DNA from: a virus
Taxonomy: Duplodnaviria > Heunggongvirae > Uroviricota > Caudoviricetes
IMG/VR virus record: IMGVR_UViG_2534682108_000008
Location: 1-4,018 of that record
Strand: one strand, 5' to 3'
DNA: 4,018 bases
This document shows positions 1-4,018 of this stretch, in pieces. A program made the translations under genes and the position numbers. Under the pieces are notes generated by a model. It was not told where the DNA came from. It was given only the letters and a program-made list of their open reading frames with translations, and ran no database searches. The first letter of the stretch is position 1. The number at the start of each line of letters is the position of its first letter.

Positions 1-33
1 ATTGGAGCACCTGTGTTGTTCTGAGGTGAGCAT
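1..33 (-). CDS. 5' end of the gene downstream of terL (possibly portal or head-morphogenesis protein); only 11 codons in window
   Basis: On the minus strand the terL stop TGA (47..45) is followed by ACAGAGGTGAT then ATG at 33..31. GAGGTG is a good Shine-Dalgarno, and the frame stays open to the window edge (MLTSEQHRCSN...). Position directly after terL suggests translational coupling. Product identity is inference from typical gene order only. Confidence 0.3.
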   Translation of the reverse strand, partial: MLTSEQHRCSN

Positions 34-44
34 ATCACCTCTGT

Positions 45-1613
45 TCAGGTGGCCAAATTCAGTGTGCCACTACATTCCGATAATGTGCCTGACCAGCGGA
101 TCCCTGATATTCCATTATTCAGGAGCGTTTTCATTCCTTCGGTCAGAACAGGTTTGCTCTGACGGGTTGTCAGCCAGCCAAGGCGGGGCGTATCGTCATC
201 ATATGCCTGATCAAGGTGCTGTTCGTTGTAGATATAACGCGTCGGATAGAGCTCCCTGAGTTTCAGAATAACGGCATGTCCGTGATTGTTACGCTCCGGC
301 CCCACAAACGCGTTGTTGTACATACGGCAGACCTGCGCAATGAGATGAGCAAAAAGCTCCGCATCAAGATGACCAAACCAGTGGGCCACCTGCTCACCAT
401 TACTGCATCTGATGATATCCAGCGATGAGCGGTCCCCGTGCTCAAGCCCCTCAGCAATATCCGCTCCGCAGACATACTCTTCATCTGGATCCGGTAGCTC
501 CCAGACCATCAGATAATTCATCAGCGTCCGGTGCTGTTCGGCTTTATTCCCGTCACGCAGAGACTGCGCTTTAGTCTTCCTTCCTGTAACAGGTTCAATG
601 TCATAAACAATCAGCGGTGGCGAACAGAATGATTCTGCCTGCAACGTACTTTCGGCACTGAACACACGTCGTCCGGACGTCAGAAACGCCTCCTGTGGCG
701 TTGAGGGAAACTCCTGCTTCATTTCCTCACGCTGTTCAGTTTCCTTATTGATGTACCACTGCTTCTGTTCATCAGTAAGCGTGATGTTCATTGCCTTCTC
801 AACCGCAGAAAAATACGTCATTTTTTCCCGTGACAGCTTCAGCCCGCTTTCCGGCACTCTGGCGCTGTATTTAGGATCCTGCCACCAGGCGTAAAAATGG
901 AATTTATAATCCTGTGCCGTCAACGATAAGCCTGATGCAGTGATCTCCTGTGCTCGGTTACTCATCTCGTAAAAATCACCACCCACGCCTTCAGCAGTGG
1001 ACTCATCAAAAATAATGCATTCATCAGAGACGGCATTAAGCGTACCGGTTCGCAGTTCTTTCGCCTTAGCCGGATATTTCGCGCAAATTTTGCCGTGCTC
1101 TGAGATATGCAGGCGCTGCACCGTACCTGAACGGAATGAGGTTGCCACCTGGATACTCGAGCCGTGACCAAACAGGATATAGCCACCGCTGGCACCGCTA
1201 CGACGTTCAACGATGGTGAATGAGGCTCTCAGCCAGTCAGGGAGATGATCAAACGGTACAGCAATTTTTGTGCGGAAAATTTCACTGGCAGCCTGTTTAT
1301 CCTGAGCGACGATCCCGCATTTGAGATGCGGAATGAATAATGCCTGGTCGAGAAGATAAATATCAATGGCTGTGGAAAATCCCAGCTGGCGCGCTTTCAG
1401 AATAATATTTTTATTGTGCATGCTCCGGAACAACTGGCGCTGCGCCGGTCGCATTCTGAAGGTGACCAGTTCACCTTTTTCGTTCTGTATTTTGTAGAGA
1501 TGATTGAGCCGCCACCAGGGATTGCTCAGTTTAGTCATGATGAACAGACGTTGTTCAGCCTCGGTCATTTCTGACGGCTCATCACATCGCGGTTCATTCT
1601 TCCGGAATGTCAT
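45..1613 (-). CDS. phage terminase large subunit (TerL), 522 aa, complete
   Basis: Longest ORF in the window. ATG at 1613..1611 with GGGGAGA Shine-Dalgarno 4 nt upstream on the minus strand. N-terminal ATPase-type motif KARQLGFST resembles the T4 gp17-type Walker A (SRQLGKT). C-terminal segment VCGADIAEGLEHGDRSSLDII has the acidic pattern typical of the RNase H-like terminase nuclease domain. Its start overlaps the upstream small-subunit gene by 20 nt, and it lies downstream of a lysis cassette. No homology search was run. Confidence 0.85.
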   Translation of the reverse strand: MTFRKNEPRCDEPSEMTEAEQRLFIMTKLSNPWWRLNHLYKIQNEKGELVTFRMRPAQRQLFRSMHNKNIILKARQLGFSTAIDIYLLDQALFIPHLKCGIVAQDKQAASEIFRTKIAVPFDHLPDWLRASFTIVERRSGASGGYILFGHGSSIQVATSFRSGTVQRLHISEHGKICAKYPAKAKELRTGTLNAVSDECIIFDESTAEGVGGDFYEMSNRAQEITASGLSLTAQDYKFHFYAWWQDPKYSARVPESGLKLSREKMTYFSAVEKAMNITLTDEQKQWYINKETEQREEMKQEFPSTPQEAFLTSGRRVFSAESTLQAESFCSPPLIVYDIEPVTGRKTKAQSLRDGNKAEQHRTLMNYLMVWELPDPDEEYVCGADIAEGLEHGDRSSLDIIRCSNGEQVAHWFGHLDAELFAHLIAQVCRMYNNAFVGPERNNHGHAVILKLRELYPTRYIYNEQHLDQAYDDDTPRLGWLTTRQSKPVLTEGMKTLLNNGISGIRWSGTLSECSGTLNLAT

Positions 1614-2409
1614 CCAGTCTCCCCGAATTACTCATTTCATGCAGCGATGACACGATGTCACTGACAGGCGTAACAACGCCCCGACGCTGGCTGGTCAGAA
1701 TATCGGTTTCAGCTCTGAGTTTATCTCTGGCTGCGTTGATTCTTTCCCGGTCAGCACGAAGTTTTGGTGCTGTCTCAGCCAGGACGTCCAGTGTCAGCAA
1801 AGAACGTTCAATTGATTCTATACGGGCAATATTCCGGTCAAGAGCCTGTTCGGCTTTAAGTATTTTGTCGTACAGAGCTACCCGTGTTTCCACGTCAGCC
1901 GCCTCTTTCAGGTCGGCGAACATCTTTTTCAATGTTCCTGTTACTGAAAGTGCGCGGGCACGGGTAAACACCAGTTCATCGGCAAGTTCCATTCCGACTG
2001 CATCATCTATGAGGTTATCTGCCTCGAGATACTTCGCGTATCCACGGTGTCTGACGGCGTGGGTGTTACGCTGAGAAAAAGCATTTGAAGGTGGCAAAAG
2101 TCTGGAACCACGAGTCCGTTTCGTTTCTGCCAAATTTGCGCATTTTTCATCACAACCATCATCGCCTGAAGGCTCGTCATGACTGGAGTTGCCGTCAGAT
2201 TTCTGCGCACTTTTTTGATCATCAATTTGCGCATTTTTCTGCGCACTTTTCTCTGTATTTCTGGGGGAGTGTTTGCGCAGTTTAATGTACCGCCGAGCCG
2301 TGTCATAACTGATATTGTTCTGACGGCACCAGTCCTGAAGTTTTATGCCGGTTCTGACATGTTCGCGTCGAAATGCCTGCTCCAGCTTTTTCCAGTCCAG
2401 CTTTGCCAT
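1594..2409 (-). CDS. phage terminase small subunit (TerS)-like DNA-binding protein, 271 aa
   Basis: ATG at 2409..2407 preceded by AAGGTGAC on the minus strand. N-terminus (KLDWKKLEQAFRREHVRTGIKLQDWCRQNNISYDTARRYIK) is basic and helix-turn-helix-like. A Q/K/D/E/S-rich low-complexity linker (SAQKNAQIDDQKSAQKSDGNSSHDEPSGDD) is followed by a helical C-terminal region with heptad character. Stop at 1596..1594 overlaps the terL start by 20 nt in a different frame, the classic terS-terL arrangement. Assignment rests mainly on position and architecture. Confidence 0.65.
   Translation of the reverse strand: MAKLDWKKLEQAFRREHVRTGIKLQDWCRQNNISYDTARRYIKLRKHSPRNTEKSAQKNAQIDDQKSAQKSDGNSSHDEPSGDDGCDEKCANLAETKRTRGSRLLPPSNAFSQRNTHAVRHRGYAKYLEADNLIDDAVGMELADELVFTRARALSVTGTLKKMFADLKEAADVETRVALYDKILKAEQALDRNIARIESIERSLLTLDVLAETAPKLRADRERINAARDKLRAETDILTSQRRGVVTPVSDIVSSLHEMSNSGRLDDIPEE
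2133..2283. repeat. cluster of five TTTGCGCAnTTTT-type repeats (palindromic TGCGCA core) inside terS
   Basis: TGCGCA cores at 2137, 2204, 2228, 2240 and 2274, each flanked by T-runs. A 16-bp exact direct repeat AATTTGCGCATTTTTC occurs at 2133..2148 and 2224..2239; a 15-bp exact repeat TTTCTGCGCACTTTT at 2200..2214 and 2236..2250. I found only one other TGCGCA in the window (334..339). Confidence 0.6.
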
Positions 2410-2847
2410 GTCACCTTCTGACGTTCTCTGTTAAAAACTGATGCACAATGACTGCTGTAAATTTTCAGATTTCACACAGCAGAGCCATGTCTGATTAATG
2501 TTTAACCTTATTTAGGTTATATCCGCTTCATTCCACTACAGCACCAGACAGGCGGCCTCGCGGATAAATGCTAAAGTCTCCTGATATAGAAACCCGTCGC
2601 CACATCGAGCGCTGATCAACATTTGTATATTCACTGCGACAGAAAGAATTTATTTTATTGAATAGTTAGAAATACAGAATTACATGCTTTATAAGCATTG
2701 ACGTACACTTCATTTTTAGCAATATATTCTGTTCTCATAGACGATCAGCCCTGCATGCACTGCCGGACACCGTCGGCAATTTTACAGACCTAAGAGGCAA
2801 TACCAAAAAGCTAACGCGCTTTATCAAGACTTGAGCAACCAACCAAT

Positions 2848-2876
2848 AAAAAAAGCACCAGTACCGCTACCAGTGC
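2848..2876 (-). terminator. rho-independent terminator-like hairpin, oriented for minus-strand transcripts
   Basis: Minus-strand RNA reads GCACUGGUA-GCGG-UACUGGUGC followed by UUUUUUU. That gives a 9-bp stem (7 Watson-Crick plus 2 G.U), a GCGG tetraloop and a 7-U tract. On the plus strand the same stem has a 2x2 C-A/A-C mismatch and no clean U-tract, so it is mainly a minus-strand element. Confidence 0.5.
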
Positions 2877-2943
2877 CCATTTCGTCGTTGTTCACAGCAT
2901 TCTGTGTACCCACTGTATTTCGCGTCATATCACCACGTCAGAC

Positions 2944-2980
2944 AATCCTTAAGGATTACATAAGATTTACGCATAATAAT
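2944..2980 (+). promoter_or_regulatory. candidate promoter/operator of the Ais-like gene: 14-bp perfect palindrome, PmrA-box-like direct repeat, and -10-like CATAAT
   Basis: AATCCTTAAGGATT (2944..2957) is a perfect palindrome. CTTAAG-gatta-CATAAG (2948..2964) matches the YTTAAK-N5-YTTAAK PmrA/BasR box pattern at 11 of 12 positions. CATAAT/TAATAAT at 2972..2980 is -10-like, about 35 nt upstream of the preferred ATG at 3012. Spacing between box and -10 (7 bp) is shorter than I would expect, so this is tentative. Confidence 0.35.
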
Positions 2981-3011
2981 GCCCATTTTCAACACAGACA
3001 AGGGAATTTAT

Positions 3012-3593
3012 ATGTTAAATCAAACGCTAACAAAATCTCTTCTTATATTTTTACTTGTCATAATCGTTTCTGTATCCATCATACACATTGTAAGAACTCC
3101 AGTCAGACTTGATGTGAATGATGTCACTGAGATTAACCAGAAACATCCCATTATTTTTCTCATCCGGCATGGGGAAAGATGCGATCGCTCCCAAAGAATA
3201 TGTCTTTCAGCACATGAGGGAATCACAGTAAACGGAGCTAACAAAGCTCAACAATATGGAGATAAATTCAGAAGAATGTTTCCATACTACAGTCTCTATT
3301 CTACAGACACACTCCGAACAATGCAGACAGCCACTTTTTTTTCGGGAGGTAAGACAGCAACTATTCCGGACATATCGACATGTGATGATAACGCAGTAAA
3401 TAACATCCTTAAAATATCAAAATCAGATCACGTTACTGTGATTTTCACACATAATCACTGTCTGTCCAGAATTGCAAAAAAAATGAATGGATGGAGATTT
3501 AAACCTGATTATATGGGCACACTGGTTCTGCATCGGGAAAATCACAATCTGATTCTCGACGGACATTTAAAACCAAACGAGCTTACCCAGTGA
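3012..3593 (+). CDS. Ais/PmrG-like periplasmic histidine phosphatase (LPS core heptose(II)-phosphate phosphatase family), 193 aa; phage moron candidate
   Basis: Preferred start is ATG 3012 with AAGGGA Shine-Dalgarno 6 nt upstream; the ORF-track start at 2979 has no SD. N-terminus MLNQTLTKSLLIFLLVIIVSVSIIHIV is a signal peptide or anchor. The motif FLIRHGERCDRS is the catalytic RHG signature of the histidine phosphatase superfamily. CLSxxxGITVxG and VIFTHNHCL...FKPDY align, from memory, with E. coli Ais (VLFRHAERCDRS...GITVKG...IVIFTHNHCL...FKPDY). The gene is on the opposite strand to all flanking phage genes and is AT-rich (roughly high-30s % GC by sample count, versus 50s % in terL). Confidence 0.75.
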   Translation: MLNQTLTKSLLIFLLVIIVSVSIIHIVRTPVRLDVNDVTEINQKHPIIFLIRHGERCDRSQRICLSAHEGITVNGANKAQQYGDKFRRMFPYYSLYSTDTLRTMQTATFFSGGKTATIPDISTCDDNAVNNILKISKSDHVTVIFTHNHCLSRIAKKMNGWRFKPDYMGTLVLHRENHNLILDGHLKPNELTQ

Positions 3594-3644
3594 TCCATTT
3601 GTTGATAATGCCCTGGCATTGATTCAGGTTGTATCTCTCCTCAT

Positions 3645-3670
3645 AAAAAAGGCCAGCGATTGAGCTGGCT
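3645..3670 (-). terminator. intrinsic terminator directly 3' of Rz (minus strand); possibly bidirectional, also closing the plus-strand Ais-like gene
   Basis: Inverted repeat GCCAGC (3652..3657) / GCTGGC (3664..3669) with a 6-nt loop. On the minus strand the stem is followed by UUUUUU (3650..3645) and starts 4 nt after the Rz stop (3676..3674). On the plus strand it is preceded by an A-tract and followed by a weak CUGUU tract, 58 nt after the Ais-like stop. Confidence 0.55.
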
Positions 3671-3673
3671 CTG

Positions 3674-4018
3674 TTAATCGAGGCATTGCATCCTGATGTA
3701 CTCCTGCAGGTAGTTAACCTGCGCGGTTATCTTGTCGATTCCACTTCGGAGACGGTAATAATTGAGTTCAGCATCTGCTGTAAGTCCTGGGCTTTCTCCA
3801 TCGCCCATGCTGCTGGCTCCGGTCGTTGACTTTGCACAGGTGGCGACGACTTGCAGGCGCTTACGCCCAGCAGAAACATCAGCACGGAGACTTTCGATAG
3901 TCGCATTAGCATCAGCAAGCTCCTTTGTGTATCTGGCGTCAAGTTCTGCTACATCACGCTGCCGCTTCTGCATATCAGCGATGATGGATGTAGCTCTATC
4001 GCGCTGCTCTTTGTAGGC
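3674..4018 (-). CDS. Rz: Rz i-spanin (inner-membrane spanin), C-terminal part; N-terminus beyond the right window edge
   Basis: The frame is open from the window edge. Translation AYKEQRDRATSIIADMQKRQRDVAELDARYTKELADANATIESLRADVSAGRKRLQVVATC... aligns closely with lambda Rz (ITDMQMRQRDVAALDAKYTKELADAKAENDALRDDVAAGRRRLHIKAVC). The ORF-track start at 3973 is an internal Met. A +1-frame lipoprotein gene is embedded in it. Confidence 0.85.
   Translation of the reverse strand, partial: AYKEQRDRATSIIADMQKRQRDVAELDARYTKELADANATIESLRADVSAGRKRLQVVATCAKSTTGASSMGDGESPGLTADAELNYYRLRSGIDKITAQVNYLQEYIRMQCLD
3727..3912 (-). CDS. Rz1: Rz1 o-spanin (outer-membrane lipoprotein spanin), embedded in Rz in a different frame, ~61 aa
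   Basis: First true ATG at 3912..3910 is preceded by AAGGAG Shine-Dalgarno with a 7-nt spacer; the ORF-track start at 3942 is a TTG. Product MLMRLSKVSVLMFLLGVSAC|KSSPPVQSQRPEPAAWAM... has a lipobox (VSAC) followed by a Pro-rich mature region, like lambda Rz1. It lies entirely within Rz. Confidence 0.75.
   Translation of the reverse strand: MLMRLSKVSVLMFLLGVSACKSSPPVQSQRPEPAAWAMEKAQDLQQMLNSIITVSEVESTR

Follow-up and report, generated by a model that had tools for sequence, protein, structure and literature searches.

A cluster of TGCGCA words within the small terminase gene

The window, by which we mean the whole stretch of 4,018 nucleotides analyzed here (positions 1 to 4,018 of virus record IMGVR_UViG_2534682108_000008), contains a terS gene for a small terminase subunit (TerS) of the 933W type, and inside this gene the self-complementary hexamer TGCGCA is repeated five times. 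This array, and its possible role as part of a packaging (pac) site, is the subject of the present analysis. The family assignment of TerS came from a PHROG profile match (phrog_370, 'terminase small subunit', E 5e-118), and none of the Pfam terminase families was matched by the protein. TGCGCA occurs six times in the window, with five copies starting at positions 2137, 2204, 2228, 2240, and 2274, and an outlier at position 334. The array spans 2137-2279, which corresponds to terS nt 131-273 of 816. The relevant features of terS are listed below.

1594-2409, minus strand: terS, small terminase subunit, 271 amino acids, 933W-type (open reading frame and the phrog_370 match)
2275-2409, minus strand: terS codons 1-45, predicted three-helix N-terminal domain that is helix-turn-helix (HTH)-like (AlphaFold2, a weak HTH_29 match, and an alignment with P1 PacA)
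2086-2274, minus strand: terS codons 46-108, predicted disordered and poorly conserved linker (predicted local distance difference test score, pLDDT, below 50)
2274-2279 (terS nt 131-136): TGCGCA copy 1, read as L-R-K
2240-2245 (terS nt 165-170): TGCGCA copy 2, read as S-A-Q, within the 15-bp exact repeat at 2236-2250
2228-2233 (terS nt 177-182): TGCGCA copy 3, read as N-A-Q, within the 16-bp exact repeat at 2224-2239
2204-2209 (terS nt 201-206): TGCGCA copy 4, read as S-A-Q, within the 15-bp exact repeat at 2200-2214
2137-2142 (terS nt 268-273): TGCGCA copy 5, read as C-A-N, within the 16-bp exact repeat at 2133-2148
2143-2203: stretch of 61 bp without repeats that separates copies 4 and 5, a candidate location of the first cut solely on the analogy with P1

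The longer repeats around copies 2 to 5 have the sequences AATTTGCGCATTTTTC (16 bp, at 2133-2148 and 2224-2239, 91 bp apart) and TTTCTGCGCACTTTT (15 bp, at 2200-2214 and 2236-2250). Across the array the protein reads ...LRKHSPRNTEKSAQKNAQIDDQKSAQKS...DEKCANL..., with the first T of the motif at codon position 2 once (LRK), at position 3 three times (SAQ, NAQ, and SAQ), and at position 1 once (CAN). An initial annotation of this DNA had described five clustered TGCGCA-core motifs with the core occurring once elsewhere, a 16-bp repeat with copies 91 bp apart, and the reading of these repeats in different frames (EKCANL versus QKNAQI). These descriptions were confirmed at the positions given above, and the array makes use of all three codon phases.

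TGCGCA was the most clustered hexamer of the window, and none of 5000 dinucleotide-preserving shuffles reached even four copies within 150 bp. When synonymous codons were permuted within terS, which leaves both the protein and the codon usage unchanged, the mean number of TGCGCA words was 0.58 and the maximum was 4, compared to the 5 that are observed (0 of 2000 permutations). In addition, the terS array was the sole place with more than two TGCGCA per 200 bp in the 88-kb record of phage GER2. A lone TGATCA, which is a hexamer of the type found in phage P1 and a Dam site, is present at 2216-2221 between copies 3 and 4, where it encodes D-D-Q; a single GATC in 150 bp may be due to chance.

The array is encoded next to a predicted DNA-binding domain

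The structure of TerS was modeled with AlphaFold2 from 32 homologues. In this model the N-terminal domain has helices at residues 6-20, 24-30, and 35-41 (pLDDT 73-88), the third of which comprises Y35-Y41 (YDTARRY). Residues 46-108 had pLDDT values below 50 and are predicted to be disordered, and the C-terminal part was confidently modeled as long helices. The array DNA (terS nt 131-273) encodes this predicted disordered linker, directly after the N-terminal domain. According to two alignments, the linker is also the region of the TerS family with the least conservation and the most length variation.

When the complete TerS model was used in a fold search, coiled coils were the only hits, and a sequence search of the PDB with TerS gave no match. 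A related N-terminal module did exceed the cut-off for HTH_psq. Taking this together with the sub-threshold HTH matches of the window's TerS and its structural neighbors (see below), we consider it likely, though not proven, that the N-terminal domain is an HTH domain.

TGCGCA arrays recur in related terS genes

Four sources were used to gather terS loci: viral contigs, genomes taken one per species, named phages, and look-ups guided by protein sequence. The loci whose TerS has the helix xARR[YH][IL]K were found to have four to eight TGCGCA at terS nt ~130-300. The sources of these loci were E. coli, Citrobacter, Salmonella, Dickeya, Erwinia, Symbiopectobacterium, 13 Aeromonas species, and a metagenome. 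The arrays recur down to ~40% TerS identity, and between enterobacterial and Aeromonas proteins the linkers are not alignable. A comparison of the motif among related terS genes had been proposed in the initial annotation, and its outcome is that the word is kept, in 4-8 copies, where the linkers themselves cannot be aligned. An unbiased count of hexamers in linker DNA placed TGCGCA at the top or joint top in 14 of 14 ARR[YH][IL]K representatives, with the copies in two or three codon phases, and all nine representatives tested had an excess of TGCGCA over synonymous permutation. In most Aeromonas loci nearly every TGCGCA falls in the array. The earlier suggestion that conservation acts on the DNA was thus borne out by the use of three phases, by the excess over synonymous permutation, and by the recurrence in relatives down to 40% identity. 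Judging from these comparisons, the word is maintained at the DNA level.

Individual TGCGCA copies are gained and lost among close relatives, and the array as a whole persists. Copy 5 is retained by most enterobacterial relatives, in which the protein at this place (ENCANSAETKR) is conserved as well. The flanks of the word are A-rich, with AAAnTGCGCAAA in enterobacteria and TGCGCAA in Aeromonas. The grouping of copies varies from 4 + 1 with a 61-bp gap in the window to 5 + 2 in the close relatives L010 and L083, and to a single tight group of 5-7 copies in Aeromonas. The TGCGCA version is carried by the window and about 10 close relatives instead of the GATCAT group of 933W (see below). No obvious array was seen in a Vibrio phage relative with 25% identity. 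A nucleotide alignment of the Aeromonas loci was rich in indels and dominated by close relatives, and no comparison of conservation inside and outside the words was obtained from it. In two viral contigs (L054 and L055) terS (1501-1923) was 98% like that of the window over the first 125 residues only and its open reading frame stops after 140, so that it is probably a disrupted gene.

Other N-terminal modules are accompanied by other words

TerS proteins of this family with other N-terminal modules had arrays of other words in their genes, as listed below.

Pectobacterium: N-terminal helix SAKRYIT; TTCGCA five times
Klebsiella phage RCIP0098: helix GAIRKRAKK; GGTACGCA six times, arranged as five plus one after 63 nt
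P0067: helix GAVRKKAKA; GGTACGAAA three times, plus GTACCTCAAAAA twice
P0076: an N-terminal module of its own; GGTGCG and AAACGCAC repeats
933W and Salmonella P0062: helix TART[RQ]IK; four or five GATCA(T) repeating every 12 nt, followed downstream by one or two TGCGCA

The TTCGCA, GGTACGCA, and GGTACGAAA arrays use two codon phases each, and each of them was above all 2000 synonymous permutations. Nearly identical C-terminal cores were found with unrelated N-terminal modules, each with a word of its own (P0067, P0069, and P0076; L106, L107, and L108), which points to a modular exchange of the DNA-recognition end of TerS. Across relatives, the array changes along with the N-terminal domain. 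As far as can be told from these sequences, the whole 933W-type TerS family has a repeat array at this place, and the word varies with the type of N-terminal module.

Some further observations were made on these arrays. In 933W and many other Shiga toxin phages, the [CT]GATCA(T) words, which equal the P1 pac hexamer with its Dam GATC, encode an (I/T)DHE peptide repeat (L113:3915-3962, which is 933W terS nt ~140-190; L014:1640-1690; L101 terS nt 135-200). Within the 933W group, the first downstream TGCGCA was lost in several lineages by synonymous changes to TGTGCA or TGCGCC (L027, L029, L033, L035, L046, and L049 at terS nt 235-240; L113:4010-4015). This suggests that the downstream TGCGCA is under weaker constraint where the upstream group became GATCA. 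The linear record of Klebsiella phage RCIP0098 (OR532892.1, L097, 41410-42096) ends inside terS, ~450 nt past the GGTACGCA array, and terS is unannotated there.

The pac site of phage P1 as the closest precedent

The experimentally established pac site of phage P1 is a 161-bp element with seven hexamers (HEX4 and HEX3) and an IHF site, the element being subject to Dam control (PMC10028697), and synonymous recoding of these hexamers resulted in ~9-fold lower P1 packaging (PMC10028697). This site is recognized by PacA/PacB. In the P1 record, the TGATCA/G hexamers are located at pacA nt 194, 201, 213, and 228 and at 324, 336, and 347, in more than one codon phase. The two groups (pacA nt 194-233 and 324-352 of 1194) flank a repeat-free center that holds the cut, with the annotated pac cuts at pacA nt ~276-285, beside the IHF site. 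When the P1 hexamers were used as a positive control in the permutation test, 9 were counted where the permutations averaged 4.15 (6 of 2000 permutations), which is the same signature as that of the window's array, though weaker.

The window's TerS and P1 PacA were also compared at the protein level. TerS weakly matched phrog_1711, the P1 PacA family (1.6e-4), and PacA in turn matched phrog_370 (1.9e-4). A direct comparison of the two proteins gave a BLASTP E of 1e-4, and an hhalign probability of 75% (E 2.5e-5) over residues 5-64, with the NTARRY helix included. The likeness is limited to the N-terminal ~60-100 residues and the remainder is dissimilar. From these alignments the PacA N-terminus appears to be remotely similar to that of the window's TerS.

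The two systems have several properties in common. In both, the array lies inside the 5' third of the gene for the recognition subunit, after the DNA for an N-terminal helical domain with a TARRY helix, and a single palindromic hexamer is repeated there in at least two codon phases. In layout the likeness is partial: each array opens with four copies, after which comes DNA free of repeats and then more of the word, three copies in P1 and one in the window. In addition, headful packaging and generalized transduction would be features shared with P1 (PMC3752737; PMC11260489). There are also clear differences. The word is TGCGCA in the window and TGATCA/G in P1, and since TGCGCA is without GATC, Dam methylation control is not expected at the window's repeats. 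The gap between the groups is 61 bp in the window versus about 90 bp in P1. The C-terminal parts of TerS and PacA are not closely related, and the same holds for TerL, the large terminase subunit, and PacB. With no GATC in its repeats, a 4 + 1 layout, and no IHF-like site, the window's array is not of the P1 type in the strict sense.

Comparison with 933W, P22, and SPP1

Phage 933W, one of the short-tailed Shiga toxin phages (Sepvirinae), is reported to be a generalized transducer whose DNA is probably terminally redundant (PMC3752737), and 'Headful (933W type)' is in use as a TerL class (PMC7317114, PMC6029569). The TerL of the window groups with that of 933W, to which it is 97% identical over 513 amino acids and divergent afterwards (933W TerL has 568 amino acids), and the TerS proteins are 76% identical. 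933W has the same gene order as the window, its linker DNA holds a repeat array at the corresponding position, and one or two TGCGCA are kept downstream of it. It differs in its upstream group, which consists of four [CT]GATCAT with a 12-nt period, each with a Dam GATC as in P1, and in its helix, which is TARTRIK versus TARRYIK in the window. We found no mention of TGCGCA repeats in terS in the literature; an earlier notice is possible, subscription papers being mostly outside our coverage.

A location of pac inside terS is the rule in headful phages (PMC9611059). The initial annotation had taken as its precedent P22, a headful phage whose pac is indeed located within the gene for the small terminase (PMC9611059). 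The pac of P22 is, however, a single 22-bp asymmetric sequence and not a repeat array, and no P22-like pac sequence was present in the window in a scan allowing up to three mismatches. We have therefore replaced this precedent by P1, with its hexamers in pacA around the cut and the similarity of PacA. A further comparison is offered by SPP1 and SF6, in which sets of direct repeats (pacL-pacC-pacR, box a/b/c) flank the first cut and the TerS proteins have N-terminal HTH domains (PMC4737164). The SPP1 repeats nevertheless span promoters and the start of gene 1 (PMC4737164), whereas the window's array lies 130-273 nt inside the coding sequence, in the DNA for the linker. Moreover, the SPP1 and SF6 repeats are few, they are poorly conserved between these two phages, and the isolated DNA-binding domain has no preference for them (PMC4737164). 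The window's array is neither P22-like nor SPP1-like.

A P1-like pac site as the favored interpretation

We propose, with a probability of roughly 0.65, that the five TGCGCA words are the recognition array of a P1-like pac site that serves a 933W-type headful terminase and is without the Dam sites of P1. The idea of a candidate pac site or TerS-binding array, put forward in the initial annotation, has thereby gained support from comparative sequence evidence, with the function itself inferred. A role in TerS binding and pac recognition fits best because the terminase is of the 933W headful type, because the array follows directly after a predicted DNA-binding domain, and because other modules come with other words. 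If this interpretation is correct, TerS oligomers would bind the repeated words late in infection via their N-terminal domains, with the words at distances of about one helical turn or multiples of it. Such binding would mark concatemeric phage DNA for TerL. By analogy with P1, the first TerL cut would then be made nearby, perhaps in the repeat-free stretch at 2143-2203, and headful packaging would run onward from this cut.

A number of observations weigh against this proposal. With regard to the protein, the HTH_29 match of the TerS N-terminus was under the cut-off (E 0.011), the structural neighbors of the isolated N-terminal domain were mostly HTH domains at the top with none of them significant, and the likeness to PacA is weak. 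With regard to the DNA, the 4 + 1 layout differs from the 4 + 3 layout of P1, and no IHF-like site (WATCAANNNNTTR, up to one mismatch) was found at 2086-2290 in a consensus scan, which is a weak test. The enrichment of word spacings at 10.5-11.75 bp relative to random placement speaks for the proposal but is only suggestive, its significance being overstated because the arrays are phylogenetically related. The GATCA-type arrays of the 933W relatives keep to one codon phase and were not clearly above what the peptide repeat accounts for (32 of 2000 and 277 of 2000 permutations). The association between domain and array could be due to linkage alone, as module and linker are adjacent. We also dropped the idea of a simple helix-to-word code, since the TARRY helix is shared by P1 PacA, for which the word is TGATCA, and since module and linker are linked in any case. 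In other pac phages, the binding of TerS in vitro was weak and mostly sequence-independent (PMC9611059, PMC4737164). Finally, no mapped pac for 933W-type phages was found in the literature, in which our coverage of subscription papers was incomplete.

Two alternative explanations deserve to be weighed, and we regard both as unlikely. According to the first, the array is indeed a binding site for TerS or for another phage or host factor, but with a regulatory role, for instance in autoregulation of terS and terL or as a roadblock. The gene that holds the array opens the packaging operon and immediately precedes terL, and an HTH-like domain is encoded next door; moreover, sequence alone cannot tell whether binding would serve packaging or regulation. 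In P1, on the other hand, the homologous position is a mapped pac with annotated cuts, and pac sites in headful phages are as a rule located inside terS, as noted above (PMC9611059). Nor did the sense strand of terS have any promoter-like or terminator-like signal at the array, save for a weak promoter-like match at its edge. Because of the P1 precedent, we consider a regulatory site to be less likely than a pac site.

According to the second, to which we would give similarly little credit, the repeats are a functionless by-product of slippage or small duplications in a low-complexity disordered linker that tolerates any encoded sequence. The predicted disorder and variable length of the linker agree with such an origin, as do the exact 15-16-bp repeats, which suggest recent duplication, and the coming and going of single copies between close relatives. 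The GATCA-type arrays of the 933W relatives, being in-frame 12-nt peptide repeats, also agree with it. However, duplication of units that are not a multiple of three shifts the frame, yet single arrays hold copies in two or three phases. The same 6-mer is also retained from Escherichia to Aeromonas despite linkers that are not alignable, and a neutral process would not keep one word amid surroundings that all change. Neutral slippage is therefore disfavored by the multi-phase copies of one word kept across such linkers, and it would not recreate the layout of the mapped P1 pac site either.

A structural role of the words, as hairpins in terS mRNA, an antisense terminator, or a cruciform, is very improbable: TGCGCA is self-complementary, and copies 2 and 3 do make a hairpin of 6 bp with a T-run after it on the plus strand (2228-2245, flagged in a terminator scan), but folding of the sense RNA of 2120-2295 was not better than that of shuffles (z = -0.47), the variant words TTCGCA, TACGCA, and GGTACGAAA are non-palindromic, and with spacings of 7 to 36 nt among relatives the hairpin is not conserved. 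An RNA or DNA hairpin role was rejected on the folding result and the non-palindromic variant words. The antisense terminator at 2228-2245, for which relatives show no conservation, probably arises only because two palindromic copies are neighbors. No Rfam family had a match in the window.

Returning to the pac interpretation, a more general and more tentative extension of it can be formulated. The TerS N-terminal domain, together with the array in the DNA of its own linker, might be a portable cassette for packaging specificity that is common to 933W-type phages and P1. In such a cassette, a word of 6-9 bp would be present in 5-8 weak copies, each about a helical turn from the next, and a ring of N-terminal domains would read them. 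Specificity would arise from multivalency, and the word would have been exchanged on at least five occasions (TGCGCA, GATCA(T), TTCGCA, GGTACGCA, and GGTACGAAA). If such cassettes exist, they would define packaging-specificity groups that stop co-resident prophages from packaging each other's DNA, and they would come in Dam-sensitive (GATC) and Dam-insensitive (GCGC) versions. They would also provide a naturally occurring system, with parts that can be swapped, in which to address how pac is recognized by small terminases. This question is unsettled, and reviews note weak and sequence-independent binding in vitro and the lack of a model that explains specificity (PMC9611059). The present TerS family would be a readable case, with many phased copies of a short word beside a likely binding domain and with natural variants of both. 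In addition, the array would provide a candidate pac site for 933W-type Shiga toxin phages, which are generalized transducers (PMC3752737). A pac site bears on which host DNA can be mobilized, including DNA beside prophage remnants like the one in the window.

Genomic context of the window

The features surrounding terS are the following.

45-1613, minus strand: terL, large terminase subunit, with its 3' end lost (phrog_2 and other terminase families)
1-74, no strand assigned: end of an IS3-family insertion sequence, which truncates terL (homology and annotation)
3674-3973, minus strand: Rz-type lysis gene
2979-3593, plus strand: histidine-phosphatase gene, between Rz and terS

Phage records matching the DNA of the window numbered 391, most of them short-tailed Shiga toxin phages, and the closest was the Stx1 (Shiga toxin 1) phage GER2 with 96.9% identity. 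The host genome is that of E. coli O157:H16 strain Res13-Lact-PEA12-26 (NZ_CP062876.1). Phage homology begins at window position 75, and thousands of E. coli records contain IS3-family transposase elements that match positions 1-93; the junction between IS3 and terL is present in one genome only. Relative to 933W, terL is without its last ~55 codons due to the insertion of IS3 at window position ~74. Past the IS3 element (L114:5834-7002) we found hokD, rem, IS66 copies, and a DUF968 gene that is split, with no portal or head genes following, which leaves the packaging module incomplete. The window is a prophage remnant and, since terL is cut by the IS3 element and the head genes are gone, its candidate pac site is a relic. 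For the same reasons, induction of this prophage cannot test packaging in this strain. A co-resident phage whose TerS has the same specificity could nevertheless make use of the relic site in trans.

Two observations concern the neighboring genes. terS and terL overlap by 20 nt (1594-1613), and an identical overlap is annotated in 933W and GER2. The histidine-phosphatase gene (2979-3593), annotated in RefSeq as a lipopolysaccharide core heptose(II)-phosphate phosphatase, is situated where 933W carries bor; with a surrounding GC content of 0.36-0.39 versus about 0.50, it is probably a moron.

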